DNA of 64,000 nucleotides from Patescibacteria group bacterium (lineage in GTDB: Bacteria; Patescibacteriota; Patescibacteriia; UBA9570). The stretch covers positions 23,663-87,662 of the forward strand of contig JAJRVJ010000010.1 of the NCBI GenBank assembly GCA_024277435.1. The letters run 5' to 3'. Made by a program: the position numbers and the translations under genes. Shown one piece after another: positions 45,234-64,000 of this stretch (its first letter is position 1; each line of letters opens with the position of its first letter). Under the pieces are notes generated by a model that was not told the origin of the DNA, did not search any database, and saw only the letters and a program-made list of their open reading frames with translations.

Positions 45234-46154
45234 ATGTATAGTATTGTTGTTCCAATTTATAACGAATCCGGTAATGTTCGTGAGTTACATAAGCGTTTAG
45301 TTTCGGTGTGTTCGGCATTGGGCGAATATGAATTGATTTTTGTTGATGATGGCAGCTCAGATGGAACTAGCAAGATTCTTAAAGAACTATCTCCTGTTGA
45401 GGTTATTACGTTTAGGAAAAATTTTGGACAAACCGCAGCCCTTGATGCCGGCATCAAGCACGCTAAAGGCGAATACATCATTACGATGGATGCGGATTTA
45501 CAAAATCCACCTGAAGAAATTCCTAAACTGGTAAAAGCCATGAAAGAACAAGGTGTTGATGTAGTTTCTGGCTGGCGTAAAAATCGAAAAGATACCACAA
45601 TGAAACGCTTCGTATCACGCGGTGCTAACGCATTACGTAAATTATTTATTGATGATGGCATTCATGACTCTGGATGCACGTTAAAGATTTATCGAAAGTA
45701 TTGCTTTGAGCAGTTCGATTTATTTGGAGAAATTCATCGCTTTATTCCAGGAATGTTACGATGGCAAGGTTATAGTATCGGTGAAACAGTAGTTGAGCAC
45801 GCCGCTCGAAAATCTGGCACTTCAAAATATGGATGGAAGCGCATCGTTAAAGGTCTAGTAGATATGATAGGTGTGTGGTTCTGGCGCAAATACTCAACTC
45901 GACCACTTCATTTATTTGGTGGCACTGGTCTCACATTTTCATTTATCGGAATGATCGGATTGGCACTGCTAGCATTCGCGCGTATCTTCTTTGCCTACTC
46001 ACTATCGAATAGCATTTGGCCATTAATTTCAATTCTTTTTGTGTTAGTTGGATTACAATTATTGATATCTGGTTTATTAGCAGATATTACTATAAAAAAT
46101 TACTACCAAAATGATCGGCGCCCCTATAAAATTAAGCGCGTTGATCACCAATAA
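45234..46154 (+). CDS. polyprenyl-phosphate glycosyltransferase, GT2 family (GtrB/ArnC/DPM1-like)
   Basis: IVVPIYNESGNV...ELIFVDDGSSDGT...MDADLQNPPEEIP plus two C-terminal TM helices. Confidence 0.85.
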   Translation: MYSIVVPIYNESGNVRELHKRLVSVCSALGEYELIFVDDGSSDGTSKILKELSPVEVITFRKNFGQTAALDAGIKHAKGEYIITMDADLQNPPEEIPKLVKAMKEQGVDVVSGWRKNRKDTTMKRFVSRGANALRKLFIDDGIHDSGCTLKIYRKYCFEQFDLFGEIHRFIPGMLRWQGYSIGETVVEHAARKSGTSKYGWKRIVKGLVDMIGVWFWRKYSTRPLHLFGGTGLTFSFIGMIGLALLAFARIFFAYSLSNSIWPLISILFVLVGLQLLISGLLADITIKNYYQNDRRPYKIKRVDHQ

Positions 46155-46157
46155 TAT

Positions 46158-47330: not shown

Positions 47331-48732
47331 GGTTCTTGCTAAAAATACCTTATGGCTGATGATAGCTGAATTCAGCAGCCGGATTATTGTATTCTTTGTA
47401 ATAGTTTGGCTAGCAAATTATCTTGGTGATGATTTATACGGTGAACTCAGTTATGCATTTGCTATTGCGAATATATTGGTTGTTGTTGCGGACTTTGGAT
47501 TAAGTACCTATGTTGTCCGCGAGCTATCTCGTGATACTAGTAAAACCCGTGAATTCATCACGCAATTATTGGGATTAAAAATTGTACTGAGCGTACTCAC
47601 TGTTGGCTTAATTATCCTTGTGGGTTGGCTACTAGGAAATATTAATATGCTTGTAGCAGTACTTGGTGGTAGTGCGATTATTTTTGGTAGCAACCGTATG
47701 TTTGTGGAATCATTTTTTCGAGCGCATCAACGCATGGCGTTGGAAGCGATTACAAAAATTATTGGAGGCATACTATTAGCCGGAATATTAAGTTATTTCA
47801 TCTGGCAGCAGGCCGACATTGAATCTATTGCATTGGCATATTTTATTGCAAATACAATATCCATAATTATTGCGCTTGTTGTATTGTATGTAGCAATTAG
47901 CCCGTATCGTATTGCATTTTCTTTACGGCGTTATCGGGCAGTACTGTTGGTAGCTTGGCCATTCGCATTAAGTTTGGCAATCAATTATCTCTATAACTAT
48001 ATGGATTCGGCAATGCTAGGAATGCTGGATCTTAAAACTGCTGCCGGTTGGTATGCTGCGGCCTATAAACCCATTTTCTTTTTAACAGCTGTGGCTGGCA
48101 TGGTGATTAATGCTTTTTTTCCAGTACTATCTAAAAGCTACGCGGAATCGAAAGACAGCCTACAATCCATTGTTTCACAATTATTTAAAATTAATTCAAC
48201 CATTGCTTGGCCAATGGCAATTGGTGGTACTGTTATCGCTACTGACCTAGTTACTCTACTGTACAACCCTGAATACGCTCCGGCCGGTTTAGCTTTTCAA
48301 ATATTAATTTGGAGCACATCATTTATTTATCTGTGGGCAGTATTTGGCAATAGTTTACAAGCCTGTAATCGTGAAAAAACGTATCTCCGTGGATTTGCTT
48401 GGGGTGCAGTACTCAATATCATACTCAATATCATACTCATCCCACTGTATAGCCTGTATGGTGCAGCGGCTGCTACGCTAATTACGCAATTATTCTTATT
48501 CGTCTACATGTACATGCAATTCAAGTCGATTGCTCATGTGCCAATTATTGCAACAACCTGGAAGCCTTTTATTTCTGCTGTGATTATGGGTAGCGTACTT
48601 GTAGTACTTCCGGCGATAGGATTAGTGGGTACAATTCTAGTGGGTATACTAGTGTATATTCTGCTATTATTTATATTACGCGGTATTACTAAAAACGATA
48701 TTACATTTATGCTTTCATTATGGAAAAAGTAG
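47311..48732 (+). CDS. MOP-superfamily polysaccharide flippase (Wzx-like)
   Basis: About 470 aa, 12-14 TM. Start set to MSNSQNKV, which overlaps the GT4 stop. Confidence 0.75.
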   Translation: MSNSQNKVLAKNTLWLMIAEFSSRIIVFFVIVWLANYLGDDLYGELSYAFAIANILVVVADFGLSTYVVRELSRDTSKTREFITQLLGLKIVLSVLTVGLIILVGWLLGNINMLVAVLGGSAIIFGSNRMFVESFFRAHQRMALEAITKIIGGILLAGILSYFIWQQADIESIALAYFIANTISIIIALVVLYVAISPYRIAFSLRRYRAVLLVAWPFALSLAINYLYNYMDSAMLGMLDLKTAAGWYAAAYKPIFFLTAVAGMVINAFFPVLSKSYAESKDSLQSIVSQLFKINSTIAWPMAIGGTVIATDLVTLLYNPEYAPAGLAFQILIWSTSFIYLWAVFGNSLQACNREKTYLRGFAWGAVLNIILNIILIPLYSLYGAAAATLITQLFLFVYMYMQFKSIAHVPIIATTWKPFISAVIMGSVLVVLPAIGLVGTILVGILVYILLLFILRGITKNDITFMLSLWKK

Positions 48733-49586
48733 CAGTAATTATTCTTAACTGGAATGGCCTAGAATTAACAAAGCGTAGCGTTCGTGATGTGCTAGCTTCA
48801 AGTTATCAAGCTGTAGATGTGTATATACTCGATAACGGCTCGAAGAACAATGAAGCCACAAAGCTTATAAAAGAATTTGGCAATACTGTTTTCATTGAAC
48901 GTAGTGAAACTAATCTGGGATTTGCAGGGGGTAATAATCATGTTGTAAATACCCTACTTCCTTCCGAGCAGTACACATACTTCTTGCTACTCAATCAAGA
49001 TACACAAGTAGACTCTGATTGTATTGAGCGGCTTGTAAATCATATGAAGCAAAATAGAATGACGGCAGTGTGTGGACCACTAGTGCTAGAAGCGGATACA
49101 TCGATCGTGCAATCATTTGGCGCCGACATCAACATGAATACAGGAAAAGTTATTAGTAGATTAAAAAATAAGCCCGTTGATACCGTTCCAGATGAACCAA
49201 CTCTCGTAGACTGCGTTGTAGGTAATTGCTTTATGGTGCGCGCTAATATTGTACAGGAATTAGGCCTATTTGACGAACAATACTTTGCCTATTATGAAGA
49301 GGCTGATTGGTGCACCCGCGTTCGGCAGCACGGATATAATTGCATGGTTATTCCGCAGGCCAGAATTTCACATGATAAGGGACATGAATTTCGCACGTAC
49401 TTGAATATACGAAATATGATTTGGTTCGAAAAGAAACTTGCCAGACCCAAACAGCTATTCATATTTTGGTTTCATTTTTGGTTACTGTTTTTTCCTGAAC
49501 GAATCAAAAAGGGCTCACCCATTGGTGAATTATTTAAAGGTGCTATACATGGTTGGCTTGGTCTTAATAAAGGAAAGTTTAACTGA
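48720..49586 (+). CDS. GT2 family glycosyltransferase
   Basis: VAVIILNWNGLELTKRSVRDVL...YILDNGSKNNE...NLGFAGGNN...EADWCTR. Confidence 0.85.
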   Translation: MEKVAVIILNWNGLELTKRSVRDVLASSYQAVDVYILDNGSKNNEATKLIKEFGNTVFIERSETNLGFAGGNNHVVNTLLPSEQYTYFLLLNQDTQVDSDCIERLVNHMKQNRMTAVCGPLVLEADTSIVQSFGADINMNTGKVISRLKNKPVDTVPDEPTLVDCVVGNCFMVRANIVQELGLFDEQYFAYYEEADWCTRVRQHGYNCMVIPQARISHDKGHEFRTYLNIRNMIWFEKKLARPKQLFIFWFHFWLLFFPERIKKGSPIGELFKGAIHGWLGLNKGKFN

Positions 49587-49588
49587 TT

Positions 49589-50485
49589 ATGAAATTTTCA
49601 ATTATTATACCTATCTATAATGACCCTCGTATTGTTGCTTGCGTGCGGAGTCTCACGGAATTAAATTACGATAAAAATGAGTATGAAATTATTATTGTTG
49701 ATAATAATTCTTCTACTAATATCCAGGAACTACTACGAGGCATTGAGTATCGCTACATCCTAGAAACTGCTGCTGGCTCGTACAATGCTCGTAACGCTGG
49801 AATCACAGCTGCTTCTGGTGAGTGGTTAGCATTTACCGATTCCGATTGCGTAGTTGATAAAGAATGGCTATCTACAATTGAGCACTACCTCGCAAAAGAT
49901 GATGTATCTGGAGTAATGGGATATTCAGCTGGTAATAACGCTAATGCTGTAGCTGCGTACGAACAGAAGATGTACGAAGAAAATATTGCTGGTTTCACTG
50001 ACGCTCAAGAACTGCGACGCATCGACACACGTAATTTTGCAGTTAAACGACCCGTAATAGAAACCATCGGAGGATTCACTAAAGATATTAAATATGGCGG
50101 TGATATGGAGTATGGAGCAATGGCTCACGAAGCTGGCTTTACTATGGTATACGCTCCAGACGTTATAGTTACCCATACTAATCCAACACACTTACCAACA
50201 CTTCTCGCTAAACGTGTCCGCCAAAATGCTGGTAATATGCTATTACTTACACATCATACGGATGTGTTTATTCAAGAATATTTCCCGCACTTATTGAGAT
50301 ACAAACCCAGTACTGCAACTTGGTTGCGCTGGGTAGTGCTATGGCCCATCATTAAGCTACACTTCCCATTTTCTGGTATATTCATTACACTGCTACCACA
50401 ACGCATTGGATATTTTTATTTTAAGGCCATGAATGTACTAGCCATGCGGTTTGGTCAATTAAACTACTTTATACATAAACAATGA
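49589..50485 (+). CDS. GT2 family glycosyltransferase
   Basis: FSIIIPIYNDPRIVACVRSL...EIIIVDNNSS...FTDSDC (DxD). Confidence 0.8.
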   Translation: MKFSIIIPIYNDPRIVACVRSLTELNYDKNEYEIIIVDNNSSTNIQELLRGIEYRYILETAAGSYNARNAGITAASGEWLAFTDSDCVVDKEWLSTIEHYLAKDDVSGVMGYSAGNNANAVAAYEQKMYEENIAGFTDAQELRRIDTRNFAVKRPVIETIGGFTKDIKYGGDMEYGAMAHEAGFTMVYAPDVIVTHTNPTHLPTLLAKRVRQNAGNMLLLTHHTDVFIQEYFPHLLRYKPSTATWLRWVVLWPIIKLHFPFSGIFITLLPQRIGYFYFKAMNVLAMRFGQLNYFIHKQ

Positions 50486-51441: not shown

Positions 51442-53253
51442 CCTCTTCGTTAAGAACGAATTGTGGCGCAGAATTTTAATATTTCCATACTCCTCAACTA
51501 GTGAGTAGTTGTTTTTTATATACTTTTGTATCCGAGCATGACGACTGGTTCGAAATAATGAACGAGTTCGCTCATCCTGAATGATATATTCTATTTTTTC
51601 ATCACTAAGATATTCTTGAATTTCAGAAATCGATGGAATAACATTATATGGATCATATGATTTTGGATCATTCGCCTCTGGTATATACACCACTGGATGC
51701 GTGATATTTAATGCCAGTGGCCTACCAGAACGCAATGCAAAAAATGGTACGGCAGTGAATATTTCATCTGTTGGATTGGTATGCGCTTGAATGTATTCAA
51801 CAACATTCCAAGCGTGCCTTACCTCCATCTCAGTTGATGGATTAAATCGCTTCGCATTTTTAGTAACCTTTGGAAAGATAATGAAACTACAAGTCAAAAA
51901 TATAGCTGCCAAAGCAAGTAATTGCTTACTATACTGCGTACGATTTTTCCAAAGAGCCGCATATATTACCGCACCACCTAGCACAAAGCTAAATGCGTAA
52001 TTATACGCATATGTTGGCAGCCAATCACTATAAGTGAGAGATGCTGCAAACATAACCGTTACAGGCAATATTAATACCCCATATTGCCACACGGTAATAT
52101 CTAGCGTAAGCCGCTTATGTTTTTTCCAAAACACTATAGCAGCAATGATTATTGCTATTATCAAACTGATAAAATACCAGCTCCCCTGTGCAGTAAACGC
52201 TAAACTTGGCCCACGTGACGGATGGAATGTTCCAGCAATAATCACATACGCAAGTAATAGAGCCGCTGAATAGACAATTGGCCGCACAATGCTGATGTGC
52301 TTTTTAAATAGTTGAATCCCTCCAATTACCACGAGGCTCATAAATGGAATTATTAACCAACCGCCAATTCTTGCAAAATCATGTATTACACCTATCTTGG
52401 TTGCAATATCGGGCTGCTGCTTATAGACAAATAATACCAACAGCGCAAGATATATCGGCACTGCCAGACAGGTTAACTTACTAACATCATCGCGGATTTT
52501 AGAAAAAATTATACTAGCAATCACCCCTCCAGTTAGTGCGCCAATTAACCCATACACTAGCCCATTAGCTAAATACACATCAGACATCCAGCGCCAATCG
52601 GTGATGACCACAAAATACAATACCGGACCCAGCATAGCTATTCCTAATCCTGAGGAAAACATAATTACGGAAATTATGTTGCGCTGTAAAGAAATTTTCT
52701 TATCCTCAAATAATTGATAGGCAATAAATATTACCATCACTATACCCCATACAATGTAGGCACGATATGATAATACTCCCAGCCCTAAACAGGCTCCACT
52801 AATCAATAACCACCAATTTGAGTGACGTTCTTTCCAGATCAGTAATAATAATATTGCTGCATATAAACCCAAGTCAGAAAATCCTCGTACTTGAAATATT
52901 GCCAGACCAATAGTGGCTAAAGCGGTAATGGTAAAATTATTGAATAACTTATGTGCAGACCACCCAAATAGATACAGTGCTGCACCAGACGCAATTGCAA
53001 CCAGTAATTGCAGGAACTTCACATGTACACCAAATAGCGCTATAGCACCGGCATACACATACAATATAACAATGGATCGAGTAAATAACTCTTTAAATGG
53101 AACAACGCCTTCTGCAACAAGTTTAGCATCATAGATCAAATTATCACTCTCAAAATTAATAATCTCATTTTCAAACCAGAAAATCTGAATAGCATATACA
53201 ACAAAGTATAGTAATACGATTGCTAATAATATATAGTGCTCTTTTCTCTTCAT
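51406..53253 (-). CDS. polytopic membrane protein, putative GT-C fold glycosyltransferase with C-terminal extracytoplasmic domain
   Basis: 615 aa, about 13 TM helices, then a soluble domain of about 170 aa. Adjacent to a PMT/ArnT-like gene. Confidence 0.5.
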   Translation of the reverse strand: MKRKEHYILLAIVLLYFVVYAIQIFWFENEIINFESDNLIYDAKLVAEGVVPFKELFTRSIVILYVYAGAIALFGVHVKFLQLLVAIASGAALYLFGWSAHKLFNNFTITALATIGLAIFQVRGFSDLGLYAAILLLLIWKERHSNWWLLISGACLGLGVLSYRAYIVWGIVMVIFIAYQLFEDKKISLQRNIISVIMFSSGLGIAMLGPVLYFVVITDWRWMSDVYLANGLVYGLIGALTGGVIASIIFSKIRDDVSKLTCLAVPIYLALLVLFVYKQQPDIATKIGVIHDFARIGGWLIIPFMSLVVIGGIQLFKKHISIVRPIVYSAALLLAYVIIAGTFHPSRGPSLAFTAQGSWYFISLIIAIIIAAIVFWKKHKRLTLDITVWQYGVLILPVTVMFAASLTYSDWLPTYAYNYAFSFVLGGAVIYAALWKNRTQYSKQLLALAAIFLTCSFIIFPKVTKNAKRFNPSTEMEVRHAWNVVEYIQAHTNPTDEIFTAVPFFALRSGRPLALNITHPVVYIPEANDPKSYDPYNVIPSISEIQEYLSDEKIEYIIQDERTRSLFRTSRHARIQKYIKNNYSLVEEYGNIKILRHNSFLTKRSKAKSKDNGNN

Positions 53254-54758
53254 AGATCTTCGGGGGTGTAATGAAATACAAATACAAGCGTATCATCTAA
53301 CTCATAGAAATATTCAAATCGATTATAATTATACTTTCGTATTTTCTTTTCAAGATGACGGGTTTTTGTAGCGTTATATATTACCCAACCACTTTCTGCT
53401 TTTTTGAGTCTATCTACATACTCTTCGAATGCTAGGCTTTTATACTCCCCTAGCTCCTGAACGGGAATTGTATTATCGGGCCAATAATAATAACGTGGAT
53501 TTTGAATAAACACTGTTTCACCCTGCGTATAATTGCGCGATGCAAAGTCATACGCAACTTCTACATTAGCTTTATCTAGATCCTCGTGGGATTTATCAGC
53601 ATACGCTTGCTGTACTAAAAAGTTATCACGCGGTAATCCTGGAAACGATATCCATGGACCAACCAGTATAAAAAATACAGTGCCGATAATTATCTTACTC
53701 ACTCTCGAAACTGGCAAGAAACTCGTTAGTAATCGTACGGAATGATAGATGCCAAGAGAGATTATGATGTAGAACAGCGGGATAAGAAAACCAATATAGC
53801 GCTTAGCCTCCCAGCGGTGGCTTAAATAAATAAAATATCCTAACAATGAGAGAGAAACAACACTCACCAGACCCGAATAACTATTGAGTTTTTTAATATA
53901 TATAATACCCATCAGTAAGAAAAAGAATCCAAATTGTGGGATGTGCAATTCTGAAAATATATCATGCAAATATGTATAGTGTGGCAAATCACGAATAATG
54001 AATGCGCCAACAGGGATAAAATGCCAGCCAGCATAATGAACAATCACACCTATTAATGCTAATGCACTACCAATAATTAATGCATACACTAACCGTTTGT
54101 CTTGATCTGATTTTTTCCATAGATACATAACCGAACGTATCGCAATATATATTCCAATACCAATAGCAAGCGCAAACGCCAGCTCACGAAATACGACTAA
54201 GTTTATCAACCACACAATCGCCGTACTTATTGCGTAACACCACTGTTGCCGACGCTTTTCGCTGGTCATCCATTTATAAAACAGGAATACTATAGCAACG
54301 GTAAGCACAAACACCATGGTATACATTCTCGTAAACCGCGACATCTCGATCATAAAATTATCAAACAGCACGAGTATTCCCGCGCCGTATGCCACCCACG
54401 GATTACGCGTAGCAATCAGCGTTGTAATAATAATAAGTGGAATAAGTAACGCTCCCCATAATACAGCCGGCATACGAGCGCCCGTTTCATTTATTCCCAG
54501 CACACTCATTGATTGCGCTAATTGCCACATAAAAGGCTTGGCGCGCGTATATTCCTCCTCGACTTCTTCTGTATAAAAATTATATTGGCGGTACTCACCG
54601 GTTTCCATCCAGCCAACAGCTGTTTCGAATTGAAAATATTCATCATTATAAAAATTGATGGCATCCAAATTCGCAAATCGGAGCCAAAAACCAACCGCTG
54701 TTAATATCAGTAATAGTGGTATATGGATGAGGAGGTCTCTTCGGTGTAGACTTTTCAT
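53250..54758 (-). CDS. GT-C glycosyltransferase, PMT/ArnT (GT39/GT83)-like polyprenyl-P-sugar-dependent transferase
   Basis: First extracytoplasmic loop FYNDEYFQFETAVGWMETGEY (DE motif). Multiple TM helices. C-terminal soluble domain. Confidence 0.7.
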   Translation of the reverse strand: MKSLHRRDLLIHIPLLLILTAVGFWLRFANLDAINFYNDEYFQFETAVGWMETGEYRQYNFYTEEVEEEYTRAKPFMWQLAQSMSVLGINETGARMPAVLWGALLIPLIIITTLIATRNPWVAYGAGILVLFDNFMIEMSRFTRMYTMVFVLTVAIVFLFYKWMTSEKRRQQWCYAISTAIVWLINLVVFRELAFALAIGIGIYIAIRSVMYLWKKSDQDKRLVYALIIGSALALIGVIVHYAGWHFIPVGAFIIRDLPHYTYLHDIFSELHIPQFGFFFLLMGIIYIKKLNSYSGLVSVVSLSLLGYFIYLSHRWEAKRYIGFLIPLFYIIISLGIYHSVRLLTSFLPVSRVSKIIIGTVFFILVGPWISFPGLPRDNFLVQQAYADKSHEDLDKANVEVAYDFASRNYTQGETVFIQNPRYYYWPDNTIPVQELGEYKSLAFEEYVDRLKKAESGWVIYNATKTRHLEKKIRKYNYNRFEYFYELDDTLVFVFHYTPEDL

Positions 54759-54831
54759 TCGTTTTCAAGTATAATCTATCCGGCTTGGATGATCAACCGA
54801 GTTCAATTATTATTATGATATTCTTACAGAA

Positions 54832-56430
54832 ATGAGCAAAAAAGCCGTTGTTATCGGTCTAGATGGAGCCACCTTTAAACTCTTAGATCCGTTAATGAAA
54901 GAAGGTATAATGCCTAATCTTGCGAGTATTTCTAATGAAGGTACTCGAGCGGTGTTGAAGTCTACCATGCCACCTTACACAGCTCCAGCTTGGACAACCT
55001 TTGCAACTGGCGTAAATCCTGGAAAACATGGTTGTTACGACTTCCTACTTCCTACAGATAACCTAGAAGAGTTTGATTTATGCAATAGTACGTATATACG
55101 TACCGATACAGTGTATGAATTATTACACCAAGCAAATAAACGGTCTATTCTTATTAACTTGCCAAATAGCTTTCCGGCCAAGCTAGACTCCCCTACTATT
55201 ACAAGCTTACTTACTGTTGGTGATCAAGCAGTGTATCCGGAATCGTTAAAAGAAAAATATCCAGAATTGAAAAACTACCGACTAACTCCAGATGAGTCTC
55301 TGCAACTCAAAGGTAAAATTGATGAATATATTGACGACATCATAGAGGTTGAGAAGGGTCACATGGAAGCCGTACGAACACTCTGGGAAAATGAGGAGTG
55401 GGATTTTTTCTTCTATCTATTTTCTGCAACTGATTGGATTTCCCATGCAATGTTCGATAAATTATTGCACGACCGCCATCCGAAAGCCATGGAATTATTC
55501 AAATATATTGATGATCAAATAGGCTGGATTAAAGAGCGCCTACCTAAGGATACTAATTTATACGTTGTATCCGATCACGGCTTTAAAGTGTTCACAGAAA
55601 CATTTTATTTCAACAAATGGCTAGAAGAAGAAGGTTATCTCATAACGAAAACAGCGGATTCGGAAGCTTTTCATAGAGGCATCAGCAAGCAAGATGAACA
55701 ACGCAGGGCTATCCAAAATAGCAAGGCACTTAAAGTGAGTGTAAATAAAGACATGATGCGCTGGATTGGAAAAAGTAAAACTGTAGAGCGTGGCGCGAAA
55801 TGGTTTTATCATAAAGTAGCTAAACCGTTTTTACCCATCAAAATTAATTTGGATGTAATAATTGATTTTGAGAATACCAAAGTGTGTTTTCCAAAAGGTC
55901 GCACCATGACCGCTATTTATATTAACGACGGTAGAAAATATAACAACGGTAAACCACTCACAGATAATGAATATATTGCACTACGCGATGAGGTTATTGA
56001 AAAGCTAAGCAACCTGAAGGGGCCCGACGGAACGAATGTAACGCCTAAAGTATATACTAAGGAAGAAATTTATGGCGATAACGTTCCGGAACGCTGTCCT
56101 GATTTATTTTACGAATTTGGTGACTATTGGTTTGTAGGTCAATTCCATTCTAGTGAATTATTTGTTGATGAGGTTTCAAACAAACATGATGCATATGGAA
56201 TTTTTATTGCCTGGGGACCAGGTATTAAAAATGGTAAGGAACTTACCGAGCATAATATTGCGGATGTAACTCCAACGCTATTGCATGATATGGAGCAAGC
56301 TGTACCAAGTTATATGGATGGCGCAGTGATGGATATTTTTTCCTCACCACGCGATGTGCAAGTTGTTAAACGTAATTTAGTAAAAGATGTACAAGCACTT
56401 GATGAACTCATTGATTCAATTGATATTTAG
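54832..56430 (+). CDS. alkaline-phosphatase-superfamily NPP-type phosphodiesterase/nucleotide pyrophosphatase-like protein, paralog 1 of 3
   Basis: VVIGLDGATF. Catalytic-Thr region PPYTAPAWTTFATGVNPGKHG. Metal motif VSDHGF. C-terminal LIDSIDI. Confidence 0.75.
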   Translation: MSKKAVVIGLDGATFKLLDPLMKEGIMPNLASISNEGTRAVLKSTMPPYTAPAWTTFATGVNPGKHGCYDFLLPTDNLEEFDLCNSTYIRTDTVYELLHQANKRSILINLPNSFPAKLDSPTITSLLTVGDQAVYPESLKEKYPELKNYRLTPDESLQLKGKIDEYIDDIIEVEKGHMEAVRTLWENEEWDFFFYLFSATDWISHAMFDKLLHDRHPKAMELFKYIDDQIGWIKERLPKDTNLYVVSDHGFKVFTETFYFNKWLEEEGYLITKTADSEAFHRGISKQDEQRRAIQNSKALKVSVNKDMMRWIGKSKTVERGAKWFYHKVAKPFLPIKINLDVIIDFENTKVCFPKGRTMTAIYINDGRKYNNGKPLTDNEYIALRDEVIEKLSNLKGPDGTNVTPKVYTKEEIYGDNVPERCPDLFYEFGDYWFVGQFHSSELFVDEVSNKHDAYGIFIAWGPGIKNGKELTEHNIADVTPTLLHDMEQAVPSYMDGAVMDIFSSPRDVQVVKRNLVKDVQALDELIDSIDI

Positions 56431-56432
56431 TT

Positions 56433-58052
56433 ATGGCGGATACTTCAAAAAAAATTGCGGTAATTGGGCTAGATGGAACAACCTTTAAAATTCTTGATCC
56501 ACTCATAAAAAAAGGTAAGTTACCGAATCTTAAGAAAATCATGGACGGTGGCGTACGCGGCACACTATTATCCACAAAACCACCAGTAACAGCTCCATCG
56601 TGGACCACATTCGCTACGGGCGTGAATCCAGGAAAGCATGGCTGTTATGATTTCTTTCTGCCCGGTGATTCCATTGATGATTTCCGCCCAGCTAGCAGTG
56701 AGGAAATTAAAGTGCCTACTATTTACGAAATGCTACGCGACGCTGATAAAAAAGCTATTCTGCTAAACCTACCAAATTCATATCCTCCAAAGGTAAAAGA
56801 GTTCCCTACCGTAACTAGCTTAATGACGTATGGTGAAGAATACATTTTTCCTGCGAGCTTAAAAGAGAAGTACCCTGAACTTAAGGAATACATGTTAGCG
56901 CCGGATGAAAATATCAAACTATCTGAAGATATGGATACATATGTTCGACACATTGTTGATATCGATCGTAAACGCATTAAAGCCGTAAAGCGCATGTTCT
57001 TGGAAGAAGATTGGGATATGTTCTTCTTTTTGTTTTCTTCAACTGATTGGGTATCCCACTTGGTATTTTATGAAATGATGGAAGAAAATCATGTGGAAGC
57101 CATGAAGGCATTTGATGTGGTTGATGAATTTTTTGGTTGGTTGTTAGAGCATTTACCTGAGAAAACGAACCTCTACATTATGTCTGATCATGGATTTACC
57201 TACTATACTGAACTATTCTACATTAATCGTTGGCTTGAAGAAGAGGGCTACCTAACAACCAGTAGTGAAACTGGTTCGTTAGAAGAAAATGCCACTGTAC
57301 GACGTCGCAATCTCAACGCGGCTCGCGACAAAAAACAGATTCGCTTAAAAGTAAATAAACGTTTATTTAAAACCATTTTCTTTCATCCTGTATTAGAAGG
57401 AGCTGCTAAAAAATTCTTCAGGAAGGTTGTAAAGCGAGTTCTTCCAATTCATGTTGATGTAAATATTGGTTTGGATTTAGATAATACCCAAGTATGTTTT
57501 CCGCGTGGAAGCATGTTGCAAACCTTGTATATCAATTATGAAGGTAATTTTAAAGAAGGTATTATTAAAGATAAATCTGAATACGATAGAATTCGCAAAG
57601 AAGTTAAAGAAAAGTTAGAACAATTACGCACACCATCCGGAAAGCGCGTAACAGAACATGTATTCACAAAAGAAGAACTCTACGGCGATAACCCGCCAAG
57701 CCCATCACCAGATCTACATTGTTACACCAAAGATGTATGGATAGTTGGACACCTGCATTCAAAGAGTATGTTTGAAAATCACATCTCTAATAAGCACGAT
57801 GAGTTTGGCATCTTCATGGCGTACGGACCAGATATTCAAGCTGGAATTGAAATACCAGATGCCGATATGGCAGACCTATGCCCTACCATGCTCCATCATT
57901 TCGACATGCCAATCCCAGACTATACTGATGGTAAAGTGCTAGATATATTTACACCGGAATCTAACCCTGCTCAGCGAGCGCCACGCATCGAACGCATCAC
58001 GAAATCCGATAAAAAGGTGCTTACAGATTTGATTGATGATATTGATATTTAA
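56433..58052 (+). CDS. AP-superfamily NPP-type phosphodiesterase-like protein, paralog 2 of 3
   Basis: IAVIGLDGTTF, PPVTAPSWTTFATGVNPGKHG, MSDHGF, LIDDIDI. Collinear with paralog 1. Confidence 0.75.
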   Translation: MADTSKKIAVIGLDGTTFKILDPLIKKGKLPNLKKIMDGGVRGTLLSTKPPVTAPSWTTFATGVNPGKHGCYDFFLPGDSIDDFRPASSEEIKVPTIYEMLRDADKKAILLNLPNSYPPKVKEFPTVTSLMTYGEEYIFPASLKEKYPELKEYMLAPDENIKLSEDMDTYVRHIVDIDRKRIKAVKRMFLEEDWDMFFFLFSSTDWVSHLVFYEMMEENHVEAMKAFDVVDEFFGWLLEHLPEKTNLYIMSDHGFTYYTELFYINRWLEEEGYLTTSSETGSLEENATVRRRNLNAARDKKQIRLKVNKRLFKTIFFHPVLEGAAKKFFRKVVKRVLPIHVDVNIGLDLDNTQVCFPRGSMLQTLYINYEGNFKEGIIKDKSEYDRIRKEVKEKLEQLRTPSGKRVTEHVFTKEELYGDNPPSPSPDLHCYTKDVWIVGHLHSKSMFENHISNKHDEFGIFMAYGPDIQAGIEIPDADMADLCPTMLHHFDMPIPDYTDGKVLDIFTPESNPAQRAPRIERITKSDKKVLTDLIDDIDI

Positions 58053-58054
58053 AC

Positions 58055-59656
58055 ATGGGTGATACAAAGAAAAAAGTAGTTGTTATAGGGCTGGATGGAT
58101 CCAGCTGGGATCTTGTTGGGCCACTGATGGATAATGGACGGTTACCCAATATTTCGCGCATGGTAGATAAAGGAATGTCTACAATGATGGAATCTACCAA
58201 TCCAGCTCACAGTGCTCCGGCCTGGACCACGTTTGTTACCGGCGTGCAACCAACCGAGCATGGCTGCTTGGATTTCTTAACGGTAGATAAAGACATTGAT
58301 GACTTGCAATTGATTGATAGCACTAAGATTCCTCAAGAAACAATTTATGAAGCCATGAAACGTCATGGCCGAAAACCAATTTTAATTAACCTCCCAAATA
58401 CATATCCACCACGGCTAAAAAATACCACTACTATTACTAGCCTAATGACACGCGGTGATGATTTTATCTTTCCTACAAACCTCAAAGAAAAATACCCAGC
58501 TCTGAACGACTATCGCCTATCACCGAATCCTAAATTACGTATGAAGGATAACTTCGATCCGTACGTTAAGGATTTATGTGAACTGGAACGCAAGCGCATT
58601 GCTGCTAGTAAAGAAATTTTTGAAGGCGAAGACTGGGACTTCTTTTTCTATTTATCCTCAGGAACTGATTGGGTATCGCATGTAGTGTACGACAAGGCAT
58701 TATTAGAGCAATACGAACCCGCACTTCAGATGTGGGAAATTATGGATGAATACATTGGATGGATTATGAACAAACTTGATGACGATACAATACTCTATGT
58801 AATGTCCGATCATGGCTTTCGCGTGTATGATCATATCTTTTATGTAAATCGCTGGCTTGAACAGCAAGGATATCTATCAACCAAAGAAGGAACCGGATCG
58901 TTTCACAAAGACCATACGCAACTTTCCAAAGAAATTAGTAAGGCTCAGAAAAAACGTAAAGAAATCAAAGTTGGTAAAGGATTGCGCTCATTTTTATCAG
59001 CCTCCCCTACTTTGGAAAAAATTGCTAAATGGATCTACTTTAAAATCATAAAAAAGTTTATACCAATTACTGTTACATTGGATTTACAATTAGATTTAGA
59101 AAATACCAAAGTTGCTTTTCCTCGCGGATCGATGGCTACAATGCTTTACATTAATAACAAAGAGCGCTTTACCAAAGGAACAGTAACTCAAGAAGAGCGC
59201 GAAGAACTTCAGCAGAAACTTGTTGATGAATTACAAGCTGTCCGTGATAGCGCTGGCGAACCTGCCGTGCGCAAGGTAATGAAAAAGGAAGATGTCTACG
59301 GGGAAAGTGGTATCCCAACGGCACCCGATGTATTTTTACAACCAGGTAAGTACTATCTTTCAGGGTCACTCCATTCATCGTCTGTATATGAAAACGTGCG
59401 CAAAAATTATCATGATGAACGCGGAATGTTCATTGCCTACGGTAACGATATCGATCATCGCGATATGAACGACACACATATTATTCATATGGCGCCAACT
59501 ATCCTACATAGCATGGGATTACCACTGCAAGATCATTTTACAGGTTCAGTAATGGATATCTATTCACAACACAGTCCTCTACAAAACCCTTCAGAGAAAG
59601 AATCATTTGGTGATCATCACGCATTAAATACACTAATCGACGATATCGATGTCTAA
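58055..59656 (+). CDS. AP-superfamily NPP-type phosphodiesterase-like protein, paralog 3 of 3
   Basis: VVVIGLDGSSW, NPAHSAPAWTTFVTGVQPTEHG, MSDHGF, LIDDIDV. Collinear with paralogs 1 and 2. Confidence 0.75.
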   Translation: MGDTKKKVVVIGLDGSSWDLVGPLMDNGRLPNISRMVDKGMSTMMESTNPAHSAPAWTTFVTGVQPTEHGCLDFLTVDKDIDDLQLIDSTKIPQETIYEAMKRHGRKPILINLPNTYPPRLKNTTTITSLMTRGDDFIFPTNLKEKYPALNDYRLSPNPKLRMKDNFDPYVKDLCELERKRIAASKEIFEGEDWDFFFYLSSGTDWVSHVVYDKALLEQYEPALQMWEIMDEYIGWIMNKLDDDTILYVMSDHGFRVYDHIFYVNRWLEQQGYLSTKEGTGSFHKDHTQLSKEISKAQKKRKEIKVGKGLRSFLSASPTLEKIAKWIYFKIIKKFIPITVTLDLQLDLENTKVAFPRGSMATMLYINNKERFTKGTVTQEEREELQQKLVDELQAVRDSAGEPAVRKVMKKEDVYGESGIPTAPDVFLQPGKYYLSGSLHSSSVYENVRKNYHDERGMFIAYGNDIDHRDMNDTHIIHMAPTILHSMGLPLQDHFTGSVMDIYSQHSPLQNPSEKESFGDHHALNTLIDDIDV

Positions 59657-61112
59657 GGCACGCTATGTGCTCACAACTGTATCTCGCTTACTATCGGCAC
59701 GTTTACTATATCGCCTATTTTATGCGTTATCGGTTATCCTCGTTTCCAACTACCTTATTAGTGATCCGGCGCTTTTAGATGCGTTTGATGTAGCATCTGC
59801 TTCCGTAAGCATTATGATGATTGTTAGTGAAGTAGGAATGAGTATGGTGGTAATGCGCAGCGGCTCACAACATGATACGAAAAAACTTGAACGGTATTAT
59901 GGAACAGCCTTAGTTATTGAAACCGTTGCCTGGACAACACTATTTATTGGTGTACTTGGCGTATATGCCCTATCAGCGGGTTTTACCACTATGTTCTGGT
60001 TGTTAGCAATCTTAGGTATCGGACAGGCCATTATTCAATATCGAGTTGTATTTCGATCGATTTATCGTGTGTTATACAAAAAAGAATGGATCACATTTAT
60101 TGAAGTTATTGATGGAATATTGAAACTTATTGGTATTTTTCTTATTACAAAATTTATCATCGACCCTCAGTTAGGTATATTTGCCATTGCTGGGCTGTAT
60201 ACGGTAAGTACCATGGTATTTGTAGCTATTTATGGCTTAAATACATTTCGATACATTAAACCGAAGTATGAGCCTACCCTACTCAAGCCTATGCTTAAGG
60301 AGGGGACTTGGTTTAGCATGCAGGCATTGGTAATGACGGTGTATTTTGAGATTGATAAATTAATGTTGCGCCTTTTTCAATCCAACGATTGGGCTGATAT
60401 TGCTGATGGAGATATTGGAAGATACACAGCTGCCGCCCGTTTAGTGGTGTTCCTACTTATATTTCATCGAGTTGGATTACAAGTTATCACACCATATCTC
60501 TACGCCAATTTTAATAAAAATATGAAGCTCTATAGAAAAGTTACTGCCCTGTCTACCAAATATCTTGGCGCACTTGGTATTGGTATGGGGGTTGGATTAT
60601 TTATGCTGGGCGATCAAATTATTCGACTAATATATAAACCTGATCTCTGGCAATCTATTCCTGCACTGCAGTTATTTGGAGTATTTGTAGCCATTCGCTT
60701 CATTGGTATCACCTCTAGTCAAATTTTTGCCACAACAAACCAACAACCACTACGCACTAAGCTAGAATTTGGTAGTGTAGTATTCAATATACTGTTAGAT
60801 ATAGTAATGATTCCACTCTATGGTTTTATGGGTGGCGTTATCGCTACAGTAATCACTGAACTGTTATTACAAATAGTATTTTATGTCATCTCTAGAAAAT
60901 CGATTGCGGCAAGTATCTGGAAGCAGCTACAAGCCATTCTTCCTGCGATACTAGCCTCAGGTATCATGGCAGCATCAATCTTCGTACTCAAGCCATTTAG
61001 CCCAGTACTTCTTACTATACCAGTAGCTATGATTGTATACGCAATAGCGCTATATGGATTACGCTTTGTGAAACCACGTGAATTTACAATGCTACGAAAA
61101 GAAGCTAGCTAA
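59649..61112 (+). CDS. MOP-superfamily flippase (MurJ/Wzx-like)
   Basis: 487 aa, about 14 TM. The N-terminus VSRLLSARLLYRLFYAL...DAFDVA is reminiscent of MurJ. Confidence 0.65.
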   Translation: MSKARYVLTTVSRLLSARLLYRLFYALSVILVSNYLISDPALLDAFDVASASVSIMMIVSEVGMSMVVMRSGSQHDTKKLERYYGTALVIETVAWTTLFIGVLGVYALSAGFTTMFWLLAILGIGQAIIQYRVVFRSIYRVLYKKEWITFIEVIDGILKLIGIFLITKFIIDPQLGIFAIAGLYTVSTMVFVAIYGLNTFRYIKPKYEPTLLKPMLKEGTWFSMQALVMTVYFEIDKLMLRLFQSNDWADIADGDIGRYTAAARLVVFLLIFHRVGLQVITPYLYANFNKNMKLYRKVTALSTKYLGALGIGMGVGLFMLGDQIIRLIYKPDLWQSIPALQLFGVFVAIRFIGITSSQIFATTNQQPLRTKLEFGSVVFNILLDIVMIPLYGFMGGVIATVITELLLQIVFYVISRKSIAASIWKQLQAILPAILASGIMAASIFVLKPFSPVLLTIPVAMIVYAIALYGLRFVKPREFTMLRKEAS

Positions 61113-61390: not shown

Positions 61391-62146
61391 TTATACTAAG
61401 GGTGTCGTTGATGTTCTATCAGCCTTATTGGAATGCTTATATGTGCTGAATAATTGTTTTACTAAGAGTAGTGGCACAGGAAGTAGCATTAACCACAGTA
61501 CATAGTACTCTAACCATAATAACGCGCCGAATGCTAATATAATAGTGATAACATCTACCGTTCCAATATGCAACCCAGATTTTAATACAATTTCCGGTTT
61601 ACGTTTTTCTAGAAAAATACTCTTCTTGGCTTCTCGTAAATATCCAACAAGTAAGTGACCAACTGATGCAGTAAATGCTAAATAGATCACCCATGGACTA
61701 TGCCCTACGCTACCGCTTAGCAATACCTCCCAATTCATAGGATCAACAGAAATAGGTGCAAAGTTATATAGCTGAATACCAATTGCCATGAACCATAGTA
61801 CCTCCTTAGTGCGATCAGATATACTATCAAACCAAATACCAAATTTACTACCACGACCAGTCATCCGAGCAACCTCACCATCCGAGCAATCTAATGAAAA
61901 TGATAATTGAATACAAATAAATGCCAGTATTCTCCCCCACCAGGCAGGAGTAAGTAAACCAATTGCACCAACTACACCAACAATGAACGATAAAATTGTA
62001 ACGTCTGGAGCAGTAATCCCTGGGACGTGTCGCAATAGTACATAGGTAAGCCGCTTTGAGATTCTACGGTAAATGAGACGACTAAATATACTATCGTGCG
62101 GTTGTTGATATTGCTTTATTTCGGCAACGGATTGTGTAATAGGCAT
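61391..62146 (-). CDS. CDP-alcohol phosphatidyltransferase family protein
   Basis: Signature DCSDGEVARMTGRGSKFGIWFDSISDR (D-G-x2-A-R-x8-G-x3-D-x3-D). Polytopic. Confidence 0.8.
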   Translation of the reverse strand: MPITQSVAEIKQYQQPHDSIFSRLIYRRISKRLTYVLLRHVPGITAPDVTILSFIVGVVGAIGLLTPAWWGRILAFICIQLSFSLDCSDGEVARMTGRGSKFGIWFDSISDRTKEVLWFMAIGIQLYNFAPISVDPMNWEVLLSGSVGHSPWVIYLAFTASVGHLLVGYLREAKKSIFLEKRKPEIVLKSGLHIGTVDVITIILAFGALLWLEYYVLWLMLLPVPLLLVKQLFSTYKHSNKADRTSTTPLV

Positions 62147-62155: not shown

Positions 62156-63853
62156 TTATTCATCTTTAACCCGATACAGTTCGCCAGCAGGCTGAAACGA
62201 AAAATCAAATGTATCAAGTATTTCTAGATCTAATAAAATACGCAAACGCTGTTCATCTGCGTTAGCACTACCATCATACCATAAATAGAGGTCGTGTGTC
62301 TCCTGTAAGTCCTGTAAAAATGGAAGCATCTCATCTAACGGTGGGCGTTCCTTGGGTTTTCGTGGAAATCGTATCACCCGCAAATTAGAATGCGTCATAA
62401 TCATTTCAGATAACCCAGATTTCCATGATCCTACCATAAGCAGTAATGGCTGTTTATCACCAATATGATTATCTTCTACTGATTGCGCGATCGCCTTAAC
62501 AGTATGTAAGTCATCACGACTAAGCGCTTTAAACACCTGCTGCTGACCTTGAATATGTTCCTGGCGCTTCGCTAACGATGGCTGCTGGGACACAAAAAAT
62601 GAGATAACAATCACCAACGCAATGAGTGACCAAGTCATTCGGGATAATTCAAGTTTCTTCCTGATATATACTAATGTAGCAACCATTCCAAATGCCGCAC
62701 TGATAGCGATGGCTGGTAATAGTGGCAATATGTAACGCGCGTAAGGATTGATCCATGCGCTGAATAGTATGAAAATCACTGCAAACCAACTACCTAATAA
62801 GTAAGCTTGCTTGCGATCTTGCTTCCATAAAAACAGTAATCCTAATAGCGCTGCCAGCAATAATGGTGGCCAGTCGCTAAATTGCTGCATTACGCCCCAA
62901 TACTGATTTACACCTCCAACACCAGGCCGGAACTTACCTTGGTTATTATAGAGATTCTGAATACTTAATGACTGCACGTGATCGAAGTTTGATGTAATAG
63001 CAATGCTAGAAATATCCTTAGCACGAAATTTTTCTTTATGCTCGGTTATTGCCGCAGAATTCCAGATTGACAATGATGCCGCTAATACAAGACCGATAAA
63101 AAATACTCCCAATAGTTTGGCGCGTGCTTTCCACTCTTTCTTTTTAATCCCATAAAAAAACCATATCACTATTGGTAATAACAATATTCCACTAGTTTCG
63201 CGAATATTAATACTGTATCCATACGCTAAGCCTGCGCCCAGTAGTATACTTATCCCAATCCATCGATACTTCCATTTCCGTAGCCCAAGAATAATACCCA
63301 CGAATGCTAACATAAAGAAAAACATTGATGGAATCTCTCGCATTGGCTGCGATACAGCATAGTTCGCATACAAATTAGCCATACCAACTGTAACAGCGCT
63401 CATAATACCAATAACGCGCTGCAGAGCCGGCGTTGTACATATCATTAACAATGCCAATACATAGGTTAGTAATACTACACCTACGGCCAATATAGGCACT
63501 AATACGTACATTAATTCATCAGATCCAGATACCTCAGCAGTAAGATACAATAAGAAGCCCAGTCCAATTGGGTATCGTGAAGCTATCCAACCATCTGGTG
63601 AAATAATTTCATGATGTGTAGGAGCAACAAAGCGAGCTAATGGCTCATCTTCAAATGCACTAAATGCTGCTTGCACTAATGGATCCTGGCTCACCAATTC
63701 TTCACCATGCAAAAATTGCCCTGCTGTATAAATATACCCAGGAGAATCATCTCCCCACGAACCCCACGCATGGTTAGTGAGGTACATAAAACCAAACACC
63801 ACAGTTAACAGTAAAACGATGCTAAGATCGAAGAGATACCAATATCGTTTCAT
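62156..63853 (-). CDS. large polytopic membrane protein, possible GT-C-type glycosyltransferase
   Basis: 565 aa with more than 10 TM helices. No soluble catalytic domain. Located in the glycan cluster. Confidence 0.4.
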   Translation of the reverse strand: MKRYWYLFDLSIVLLLTVVFGFMYLTNHAWGSWGDDSPGYIYTAGQFLHGEELVSQDPLVQAAFSAFEDEPLARFVAPTHHEIISPDGWIASRYPIGLGFLLYLTAEVSGSDELMYVLVPILAVGVVLLTYVLALLMICTTPALQRVIGIMSAVTVGMANLYANYAVSQPMREIPSMFFFMLAFVGIILGLRKWKYRWIGISILLGAGLAYGYSINIRETSGILLLPIVIWFFYGIKKKEWKARAKLLGVFFIGLVLAASLSIWNSAAITEHKEKFRAKDISSIAITSNFDHVQSLSIQNLYNNQGKFRPGVGGVNQYWGVMQQFSDWPPLLLAALLGLLFLWKQDRKQAYLLGSWFAVIFILFSAWINPYARYILPLLPAIAISAAFGMVATLVYIRKKLELSRMTWSLIALVIVISFFVSQQPSLAKRQEHIQGQQQVFKALSRDDLHTVKAIAQSVEDNHIGDKQPLLLMVGSWKSGLSEMIMTHSNLRVIRFPRKPKERPPLDEMLPFLQDLQETHDLYLWYDGSANADEQRLRILLDLEILDTFDFSFQPAGELYRVKDE

Positions 63854-63863: not shown

Positions 63864-64000
63864 TTAGGCAGTGAGTAATCCTCGCTGCTCTAATTCAGAA
63901 ATTATATGTGTAATACACTCCTTAATCGTTTGCCTTTCTGTATCCACAACAATTTCTGGTTTACTAGGTTCTTCATATGGGGCAGAAATTCCTGTAAAAT
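63864..64000 (-). CDS. 3' end of a minus-strand CDS of unknown function; continues beyond the window
   Basis: Reverse-strand frame reads ...FTGISAPYEEPSKPEIVVDTERQTIKECITHIISELEQRGLLTA*, open to the window edge. Confidence 0.35.
   Translation of the reverse strand, partial: FTGISAPYEEPSKPEIVVDTERQTIKECITHIISELEQRGLLTA

Follow-up and report, generated by a model that had tools for sequence, protein, structure and literature searches.

Bacterial and animal NPPs, such as the Xanthomonas enzyme (Xac NPP, PDB 2gsn) and ENPP1, ENPP3, ENPP5, ENPP6 and ENPP7, are secreted or ecto-enzymes that combine the PF01663 fold with a seven-residue two-metal site and a Thr nucleophile, and they lack the Arg that is typical of alkaline phosphatase (AP). 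Other members of the AP superfamily are transferases, and in PIG-N, PIG-G, PIG-O, LtaS, EptA and OpgB a Thr nucleophile serves to transfer a phospho-alcohol to a glycan or lipid. Here we describe three consecutive NPP-like genes, NPP1, NPP2 and NPP3, that lie next to a flippase gene within a glycan island of a Patescibacteria group bacterium. The stretch analyzed, called the window throughout, is 64,000 nucleotides long (contig JAJRVJ010000010.1, positions 23,663 to 87,662). We favor, with a probability of about 0.45, the reading that NPP1–3 are subfunctionalized NPP enzymes that decorate (or trim) the phospho-substituents of a lipid-linked glycan at the inner face of the membrane before the glycan is flipped. 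The three genes are as follows.

54832..56430, plus strand: NPP1, 532-residue cytoplasmic paralog with the NPP fold (PF01663, E = 2e-34)
56433..58052, plus strand: NPP2, 539-residue paralog with the NPP fold (PF01663, E = 8e-38), the copy modeled with AlphaFold2
58055..59656, plus strand: NPP3, 533-residue paralog with the NPP fold (PF01663, E = 1e-31), with a weak Sulfatase match

NPP1–3 resemble the described NPPs in fold, family and two-metal site. Unlike Xac NPP and the ENPPs, to which they are 12–16% identical, NPP1–3 are cytoplasmic, possess about 100–150 extra residues that include a polybasic insertion, end in a docking-type tail, and are encoded among the genes of a glycan operon. The closest analogy to a diverged triplet may be glycosylphosphatidylinositol (GPI) synthesis, in which three ethanolamine-phosphate transferase paralogs each serve a different mannose; the likeness would be one of logic. 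Enzymes of the PIG-N, LtaS and EptA type are anchored by multiple transmembrane (TM) segments, have extracytoplasmic or lumenal domains and use phospholipid donors, whereas NPP1–3 lie in the cytoplasm and lack TM segments. In the synthesis of pneumococcal teichoic acid, LicD adds phosphocholine to the lipid-linked repeat in the cytoplasm, after which the MOP flippase TacF acts. The same logic of cytoplasmic decoration and a dedicated flippase may apply here, although LicD has a nucleotidyltransferase-type fold that is unrelated to NPP. In the pathway to the low-salt N-glycan of Haloferax volcanii, Agl7 (HVO_2046) is needed for the sulfation of a dolichyl phosphate (DolP)-linked hexose, which is apparently a prerequisite for flipping by the MOP-type protein Agl15 (PMC3892788). 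This is again a modification of a lipid-linked sugar on the cytoplasmic side, and the Agl7 cluster also contains rhamnose genes, as does the window. The analogy would be functional only; the top 120 homologs of an NPP-like protein from Haloferax mediterranei did not include Agl7, and neither of two Haloferax loci of the family that we examined is the agl5-15 cluster. PF01663 proteins that act inside the cell include AtaC, a c-di-AMP phosphodiesterase of a cytoplasmic lineage (PMC7132281), and EboF, a predicted hydrolase of the biosynthetic ebo cluster (PMC5133447). Both belong to other lineages and contexts, and they have neither the architecture of insertion and tail nor a link to glycan loci.

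NPP1–3 belong to the PF01663/NPP family by their profile matches, fold and active site, as the first-pass annotation of the window had proposed. All three scored 110–131 bits against PF01663 (E = 1e-31 to 8e-38; cut-off 23 bits), and the additional PF00884 (Sulfatase) match of NPP3 (E = 1e-7, 32 bits) was far below its own PF01663 score. An AlphaFold2 model of NPP2 built on 55 homologs reached a pLDDT of 91.2 and a pTM of 0.91. When this model was compared with the PDB by Foldseek, the best match was Xac NPP (E = 5e-17, TM-score 0.65 on the target, 15% identity). The top 47 matches were NPPs and ENPPs (ENPP7, 1, 3, 6 and 5 after Xac NPP), followed by the phosphonoacetate hydrolase PhnA. A sequence search of the PDB with the paralogs returned only weak NPP and PhnA matches. 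The motifs GLDG, (T/S)APxWTTFxTG and SDHGF were found in all three proteins; the annotation had correctly recognized the first and last of these, but it had assigned a catalytic Thr to every copy, and NPP3 has a Ser at this position (SAPAWTTFVTG). HMMER aligned D14, T53 and the SDHG motif (D252-H253) of NPP2 with the catalytic residues of Xac NPP and PhnA. The predicted active-site residues are listed below.

NPP1: D11, T50 (nucleophile), D201, H205, D248, H249, H452
NPP2: D14, T53 (nucleophile), D205, H209, D252, H253, H455

The Asp and His ligands (D14, D205, H209, D252, H253 and H455 in NPP2) were conserved at 95% or more in each of four groups of homologs described below (NPP1, NPP2, NPP3 and single-copy), and the enzymes therefore look catalytically competent. 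The predicted two-metal site (Asp; Asp-His; Asp-His; His) and its nucleophile appear complete in the sense of the family, with Ser in place of Thr in NPP3. No Arg and no Lys was found among the residues that are universally conserved in the alignment of the four groups. From comparisons of AP and NPP, a missing AP-type Arg is a sign that monoanionic, diester-type substrates are preferred over monoesters, and the lack of any universally conserved Arg or Lys argues for the same preference in NPP1–3.

Several other assignments were considered and rejected. NCBIfam searches with the family proteins gave only sub-threshold matches to PhnA, PafA and PehA; the PhnA profile matched with 25–43 bits against a cut-off of 407 bits, and only over the N-terminal 100 residues. 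Matches to phosphopentomutase and to cofactor-independent phosphoglycerate mutase (iPGM) appeared at E > 0.005 only and for distant relatives. The C/S-x-P-x-R formylglycine motif of sulfatases (PF00884) is absent, the corresponding context, T-A-P-x-W (S-A-P-A-W in NPP3), containing neither Cys nor Arg. Canonical sulfotransferases that depend on 3'-phosphoadenosine 5'-phosphosulfate (PAPS), represented by PF00685, PF13469 and related profiles, gave no Pfam match at E ≤ 0.01, and the fold is that of an NPP. Thus, no match placed NPP1–3 among phosphopentomutases, iPGM, PhnA or another characterized family. Membrane-anchored transferases of the LtaS, EptA or PIG-N type were also rejected, as a hydropathy scan predicted no TM segment in NPP1–3. 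Strand 1 of the AP fold begins at residues 5–8, which excludes a signal peptide. NPP1–3 are therefore predicted to be cytoplasmic, in agreement with the annotation.

The open reading frame (ORF) coordinates bear out the description of three collinear paralogs, all on the plus strand. The spacing between them is as close as had been noted, although both spacers are exactly 2 nt rather than 2–3 nt. At the protein level NPP1 and NPP2 are 46–47% identical, NPP1 and NPP3 40%, and NPP2 and NPP3 41%; at the DNA level six repeat families run in register across the triplet with a spacing of 1610–1622 nt. A promoter-like site, TAGACT-17-TATAAT (54747..54775, plus strand), is located in the 73-nt divergent spacer 5' of NPP1 as a consensus match only, and promoter-like sites are not enriched in the triplet region. 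No tRNA genes and no Rfam features were found in the window.

We grouped the 120 best homologs with the three copies from the window. The closest homologs of the triplet are encoded in metagenome-assembled genomes (MAGs) of Patescibacteria/Kerfeldbacteria. The sequences fell into an NPP1 orthogroup of 32, an NPP2 orthogroup of 29 and an NPP3 orthogroup of 28 members, including the window copies, with 55–76% identity to the respective copy, and a single-copy group of 34 sequences that are about 45% identical to NPP1. Sister lineages of the triplet-bearing genomes have one copy each. In a neighbor-joining tree the three orthogroups were monophyletic, with the topology (NPP3,(single-copy,(NPP1,NPP2))). 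At least six other genomes (L001, L003, L005, L007, L008 and L010, where L numbers designate the loci compared) have the same order of a PMT-like gene on the minus strand, NPP1, NPP2, NPP3 and flippase; the array is conserved, not scattered. Since orthogroups and gene order are common to these genomes, the triplication is ancient and has been maintained. Subfunctionalized substrate or acceptor specificity would be expected to leave residues fixed within each orthogroup at the active site, and such residues were found:

Position −1 relative to the nucleophile: Tyr in NPP1, Val in NPP2, His in NPP3, Met in the single-copy group
Nucleophile: Thr in NPP1, Thr in NPP2, Ser in NPP3, Thr in the single-copy group
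Residue before the last His ligand (H455 in NPP2): Lys in NPP1, Lys in NPP2, Tyr in NPP3, Lys in the single-copy group

More orthogroup-specific fixed residues are located inside the polybasic insertion. The suggestion that the triplication diversified substrate specificity is thus plausible, and the conserved triplet may serve as a natural experiment in specificity divergence. The activities that the annotation offered as examples (transfer of phosphocholine or phosphoglycerol, or nucleotide-sugar pyrophosphatase activity) are candidates at most.

Two elements outside the catalytic core set these proteins apart.

57240..57467, plus strand: polybasic amphipathic insertion, residues 270–345 of NPP2, with equivalents in NPP1 and NPP3
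58008..58049, plus strand: C-terminal tail of NPP2 (DKKVLTDLIDDIDI)
56386-56427, plus strand: the same element in NPP1
59612-59653, plus strand: the same element in NPP3

The insertion follows the SDHG motif and has a charge of +8 to +10 in proteins whose overall net charge is −14 to −19. It contains the top-ranked amphipathic helices, such as KTVERGAKWFYHKVAKPF, and its charge was positive in every one of the 55 relatives aligned and of the 139 representatives of the family scanned. In the NPP2 model pLDDT is lower here (67–87). From its composition, the insertion may be an element that binds a membrane or a polyanion. The extreme C-termini read ...LDELIDSIDI in NPP1, LIDDIDI in NPP2 and LIDDIDV in NPP3, and the hydrophobic spacing Φ-x3-Φ-x2-Φ-x-Φ-COOH is maintained in all three orthogroups and in the single-copy relatives. 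At the same position the wider family has …E(D/E)ExxΦxxRLxxLGYΦ(D/G). Of 147 representatives about 45 end in this form, as do almost all members from Chloroflexota; a variant that is strongly basic was also seen. The tail reported in the annotation is therefore real and conserved in other genomes, but it is not peculiar to the three paralogs, and LIDDIDI appears to be a local variant of a family-wide, portable …RLxxLGYΦ motif. The motif is portable in that the canonical tail was also found on other proteins. In Patescibacteria it occurs on a protein of 70–100 residues annotated as CopG/ribbon-helix-helix (RHH), which adjoins the NPP gene or is encoded upstream of the ATP sulfurylase gene and is present in one or two copies per locus. 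It further occurs at the C-terminus of a family 2 glycosyltransferase (GT2) in L023 and on a PAPS_reduct-domain protein beside an NPP-like gene in a Desulfobacterales MAG (L079). The carriers have the following coordinates.

L083, 9668-9880, plus strand: portable-tail carrier
L003, 21143-21370, minus strand: portable-tail carrier
L007, 19832-20134, minus strand: portable-tail carrier
L023, 13674-14819, minus strand: portable-tail carrier
L079, 4567-5316, plus strand: portable-tail carrier
L044, 9989-11677: Chloroflexota NPP-like protein, as an example of those with the tail at the C-terminus

Four kinds of protein therefore have the tail (NPP-like, small CopG/RHH, GT2 and PAPS_reduct-domain). 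A tail shared by such dissimilar members of a pathway suggests that they dock to the same partner and hints at a recruitment code for a membrane machinery that assembles glycans.

The triplet has the following neighbors.

45234..50485, plus strand: upstream glycan genes, namely a GtrB/PpgS-like GT2 with two C-terminal TM segments, a GT4, a Polysacc_synt flippase and two GT2 genes
51406-53253, minus strand: second membrane protein upstream of NPP1, 615 residues, 13 predicted TM segments
53250..54758, minus strand: PMT-like GT-C glycosyltransferase, 502 residues, at least nine TM segments (PF02366, E = 4e-8), divergent from NPP1, position conserved in relatives
59649..61112, plus strand: Wzx/MOP flippase homolog, 487 residues, 12 TM segments, overlapping the NPP3 stop by 8 nt

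The 487-residue flippase homolog had no Pfam match. Its assignment as a MOP flippase holds because it is similar over its full length to Polysacc_synt proteins, with 25% identity to the flippase encoded upstream in the window (E = 6e-14) and 30% to a Polysacc_synt protein of a relative (E = 8e-70). A flippase gene directly follows the triplet in every relative with sufficient sequence, and a MOP flippase is encoded in 21 of 27 Patescibacteria-type loci. The triplet had been placed between PMT-like GT-C transferases and a MOP flippase; the flippase and one PMT-like GT-C stand, but a second GT-C is not verified, as the 615-residue protein showed no BLASTP similarity to the 502-residue PMT-like protein. 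No family was detected for it (Pfam at E ≤ 0.001, NCBIfam), and it was seen only in the window. The order of the upstream glycan genes is the same in relatives, and dTDP-rhamnose genes are located further upstream in the window. A 211-residue ORF in this region (50806-51441, plus strand) matched only the C-terminal part of the GT2 profile (positions 158–219) and lies downstream of roughly 320 nt that do not code for protein; in its place relatives encode a complete GT2 (about 306 residues), and the ORF may be a truncated or frameshifted GT2 gene.

The favored reading accommodates these features as follows. Attack of the Thr nucleophile (Ser in NPP3) on a phosphodiester or phosphoanhydride donor would give a covalent phospho-X-enzyme intermediate, from which the phospho-substituent would reach one particular hydroxyl group on a glycan linked to polyprenyl phosphate; conversely, and less likely, a substituent would be trimmed. 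Each paralog would serve a different site on the glycan. The co-transcribed Wzx/MOP flippase would then flip the decorated intermediate outward, where it would meet the GT-C enzymes. The polybasic amphipathic insertion would hold the enzymes at an anionic membrane or at their lipid-linked substrate, and the hydrophobic tail would dock them to a shared partner. We infer that the chemistry is phosphoryl and not sulfuryl, that the enzymes transfer and do not hydrolyze, that the acceptor is lipid-linked, and that insertion and tail have these roles.

Downstream of the flippase gene, a minus-strand operon converges on the NPP/flippase operon and runs to the end of the window.

61391..62146, minus strand: CDP-alcohol phosphotransferase, 251 residues (PF01066, E = 1e-9), convergent with the NPP/flippase operon
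62156..63853, minus strand: 565-residue multi-TM GT-C-like protein with a weak DUF6541 match (weak PMT_2 matches in relatives), always upstream of the CDP-alcohol phosphotransferase
63864..64000, minus strand: 3' end of a gene for adenosine 5'-phosphosulfate (APS) kinase, cut by the window end; the last 135 nt encode FTGISAPYEEPSKPEIVVDTERQ...GLLTA and a stop, as in the APS kinase C-termini of L003 and L007

The best NCBIfam matches of the CDP-alcohol phosphotransferase were DIPP, archaetidylinositol-phosphate (AIP) and PIP synthases (E = 5e-17 to 2e-9, all below the curated cut-offs), and such an enzyme is encoded in 16 of 27 Patescibacteria-type loci. Single-copy loci have, after the flippase gene, genes for a nucleotidyltransferase, a glycerol-1-phosphate dehydrogenase (283 bits), a second CDP-alcohol phosphotransferase and a small CopG-like ORF, and then the NPP gene. 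The dehydrogenase, nucleotidyltransferase and phosphotransferase directly upstream of the NPP gene suggest a possible source of a phosphodiester donor. In L003 the CDP-alcohol phosphotransferase and the GT-C-like protein are called as one 810-residue fusion (15950-18382, minus strand), and in the near-identical L004 they are called as two genes (250 and 563 residues; 10739-13218, minus strand). The difference may come from read-through or from assembly; a genuine fusion, the alternative, would indicate that the two functions are coupled. A CarS-like CDP-archaeol synthase/CTP_transf_1 protein of 183 residues (5803-6354, minus strand, E = 5e-28) is also encoded in this bacterium of the candidate phyla radiation (CPR) and could supply the CDP-activated lipid for the phosphotransferase.

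These neighbors bear on the possibility that the paralogs are hydrolases, that is, phosphodiesterases or pyrophosphatases that process a pathway intermediate or clear nucleotide by-products. They could remove a phosphate-linked group left by the DIPP/PIP-synthase-like enzyme, or cleave polyprenyl-diphosphate- or NDP-linked species. PIP, AIP and DIPP synthases, which the neighboring phosphotransferases resemble, make products that need later dephosphorylation, and hydrolysis is the reaction of all characterized close structural relatives (Xac NPP, the ENPPs and PhnA). The cytoplasmic AtaC (PMC7132281) and the predicted hydrolase EboF (PMC5133447) show that PF01663 hydrolases exist inside cells, in the case of EboF in a biosynthetic cluster. 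A single clean-up step, however, would hardly motivate the long joint retention of three diverged paralogs, the AP-type Arg for binding a monoester is absent, and the family is widespread without a CDP-alcohol phosphotransferase nearby. We consider hydrolysis unlikely on balance, while giving it real weight.

In relatives, the minus-strand operon continues after the APS kinase gene with genes for a DHH phosphoesterase and ATP sulfurylase. Because the window ends in APS kinase and the relatives continue in this way, we regard an operon for PAPS synthesis as part of the glycan island; the DHH protein plausibly acts as a pAp phosphatase. Neither this operon nor the phosphotransferase/GT-C pair had been noted in the first-pass annotation of the triplet. 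In L003, L007, L013, L019, L021, L023 and L024, and partly in L022, the NPP-flippase unit is followed by genes for CDP-alcohol phosphotransferase, GT-C, APS kinase, DHH and ATP sulfurylase, in this order. When Patescibacteria loci with enough downstream sequence were counted (n = 11), 10 had the phosphotransferase/GT-C pair and nine had the PAPS genes; L001 is an exception, with a triplet and no PAPS genes within 10 kb. Single-copy relatives encode, between the APS kinase and DHH genes, a second and distant PF01663 paralog of about 463 residues (23–26% identical):

L083, 14691-16082, minus strand: distant PF01663 paralog in the PAPS operon
L084, 15891-17288, minus strand: distant PF01663 paralog in the PAPS operon
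L013, L021 and L023: the same paralog

This linkage raises the possibility that the paralogs are new glycan sulfotransferases or partners in sulfuryl transfer. They would use PAPS or APS, possibly through a sulfo-Thr/Ser intermediate, to modify different positions of the lipid-linked glycan before flipping, and the DHH protein would recycle PAP. Such a role would account for both the PAPS linkage and the lack of a canonical sulfotransferase in triplet loci. Besides the gene order and the distant paralog within the PAPS operon, a search for canonical sulfotransferase domains is relevant here. None was found in the ORFs of at least 120 residues in the window or in the 21.6 kb of L003, which leaves the NPP-like proteins as the only unassigned soluble cytoplasmic enzymes in the triplet-type clusters. 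The lack of a sulfotransferase profile in NPP1–3 themselves lowers the probability that they are canonical sulfotransferases, but it would not affect whether they could transfer sulfate. In the Desulfobacterales Wzx/Wzy locus the gene for the tail-bearing PAPS_reduct-domain protein immediately precedes an NPP-like gene, weak Sulfatase matches were obtained with NPP3 and the distant paralog, and sulfate esters are monoanionic, as are phosphodiesters. Haloarchaea, which are rich in sulfated glycans, have many copies of the family. The DolP-hexose sulfation of Haloferax volcanii that precedes, and seems required for, flipping (PMC3892788) is a parallel for the proposed timing. Against sulfuryl transfer, the active site is that of a two-metal, Thr-nucleophile phosphodiesterase and offers no structural precedent. 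We know of no PAPS-dependent sulfotransferase with the AP fold. A Sulfotransfer_3 gene is located at the edge of the single-copy locus L083, so that a canonical enzyme may exist elsewhere in other genomes; a test of low sensitivity detected no homolog of this 80-residue fragment in the other loci. The L001 triplet without nearby PAPS genes also counts against it, as does the absence of sulfate-activation genes near the family in Chloroflexota and haloarchaeal loci. Overall, we find sulfuryl transfer by the paralogs improbable, more so than hydrolysis. A shade more doubtful still is its extension to the entire family. In that case CPR bacteria, Chloroflexota and haloarchaea would share a class of glycan sulfotransferases with the AP/NPP fold that draw PAPS from the adjoining operon, the paralogs would sulfate different positions of a lipid-linked glycan as a condition for its flipping, and the tail would recruit the enzymes and the CopG-like regulator to a membrane platform.

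The family extends far beyond Patescibacteria, with 5,044 clusters at 50% identity found at E ≤ 1e-30 and 13,908 at E ≤ 1e-10. Source databases name its members 'alkaline phosphatase family protein' or 'predicted AlkP superfamily phosphohydrolase/phosphomutase'; a COG3379-type label occurs in JGI names on full-length matches (P0008, P0020, P0022 and others; 63–68% identity). A literature search for COG3379, PF01663 and 'AlkP superfamily' returned no characterized member of the NPP1–3 family, and one for the AP superfamily with sulfotransferase and PAPS returned nothing relevant. Chloroflexota homologs (28–31% identity) are encoded in a conserved operon with a PpgS-like GT2, DUF2304, an XrtA-type polysaccharide deacetylase, a FemAB-like protein and a membrane-plus-TPR protein of about 2000 residues.

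L044, 8818-21542, and about 28 other Chloroflexota loci: Chloroflexota module

The protein of about 2000 residues combines a membrane domain resembling DUF6541 at its N-terminus with TPR repeats that span over 1000 residues; BLASTP found no similarity between the 565-residue membrane protein of the window and this DUF6541+TPR protein. The same module of GT2, NPP, deacetylase and FemAB genes is present in haloarchaea (Haloferax L087, Natronorubrum L085), whose megaplasmids have up to five family copies per record, inside glycan clusters. The Desulfobacterales MAG has two copies inside its Wzx/Wzy locus (Wzz/kinase, CapD, Wzx, Wzy, GT2 and Bac_transf). An Anaerolineae MAG (L075, 933-9949) has an independent array in the order NPP-Wzx-NPP-NPP-GT2-Wzx, in which the three copies are diverged and not recent duplicates; multi-paralog arrays beside flippases thus arose more than once. 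A GT2 for polyprenyl-phosphate-sugar synthesis is encoded within two genes of the NPP-like gene in 33 of 50 loci outside Patescibacteria. These Chloroflexota, haloarchaeal, Desulfobacterales and Anaerolineae contexts identify the family as an accessory of lipid-linked glycan assembly across domains. The first-pass annotation had considered soluble NPP/AP-fold enzymes nonstandard in polysaccharide loci, which holds for textbook loci but not for this family, which recurs in glycan loci of several phyla and of haloarchaea. We conclude that it is a cytoplasmic branch of the NPPs that is uncharacterized, very widespread and devoted to glycan loci, and that is marked by the polybasic insertion and the portable tail; the window contains its conserved three-paralog version.

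The same distribution addresses the possibility that the paralogs are general enzymes for scavenging nucleotides or phosphate that reside in the glycan island by chance. Their database names say no more than alkaline phosphatase family, and CPR bacteria rely on scavenging. Chance placement is nevertheless hard to reconcile with an operon shared with a flippase, conserved synteny, a cytoplasmic location and recurrent placement in glycan loci of at least four phyla and archaea, and we consider it very improbable.

Several points also weigh against the reading that we prefer, decoration of a lipid-linked glycan with phospho-substituents. Sequence does not separate transfer from hydrolysis, and no family member has an established substrate, product or glycan. 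The known transferases of the AP superfamily (LtaS, EptA and the GPI ethanolamine-phosphate enzymes) are membrane-anchored with extracytoplasmic catalytic domains, and NPP1–3 are neither. Where present, the CDP-alcohol phosphotransferase could itself install the phospho-substituent, leaving another role for the NPP-like proteins. Phosphoryl chemistry does not explain the linkage to PAPS genes in nine of the 11 Patescibacteria loci or the distant paralog within the PAPS operon. In Chloroflexota and haloarchaea, the family is paired with deacetylase and FemAB-like genes and no obvious pathway to a phospho-donor. Whether the group added is phospho or sulfo, the family may perform a missing enzymatic step of decoration at the lipid-linked stage. 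Its function bears on the glycan pathways of CPR bacteria and Chloroflexota, whose surfaces are almost unknown, and of haloarchaea, for whose sulfated glycans, to our knowledge, no biochemical mechanism of sulfation has been identified.

Three further proteins of the window deserve mention. A 1181-residue ORF (12377-15922, minus strand) had no Pfam match at E ≤ 0.001. Between rmlA and rmlC, a 513-residue protein (41109-42650, minus strand) has a GGDEF-like domain at residues 186–308 (E = 2e-11), and its remainder matched no family. A 503-residue protein with one N-terminal TM segment (43640-45151, minus strand), which had no match in Pfam (E ≤ 0.001) or NCBIfam, is encoded beside the GtrB-like GT2 in seven loci.

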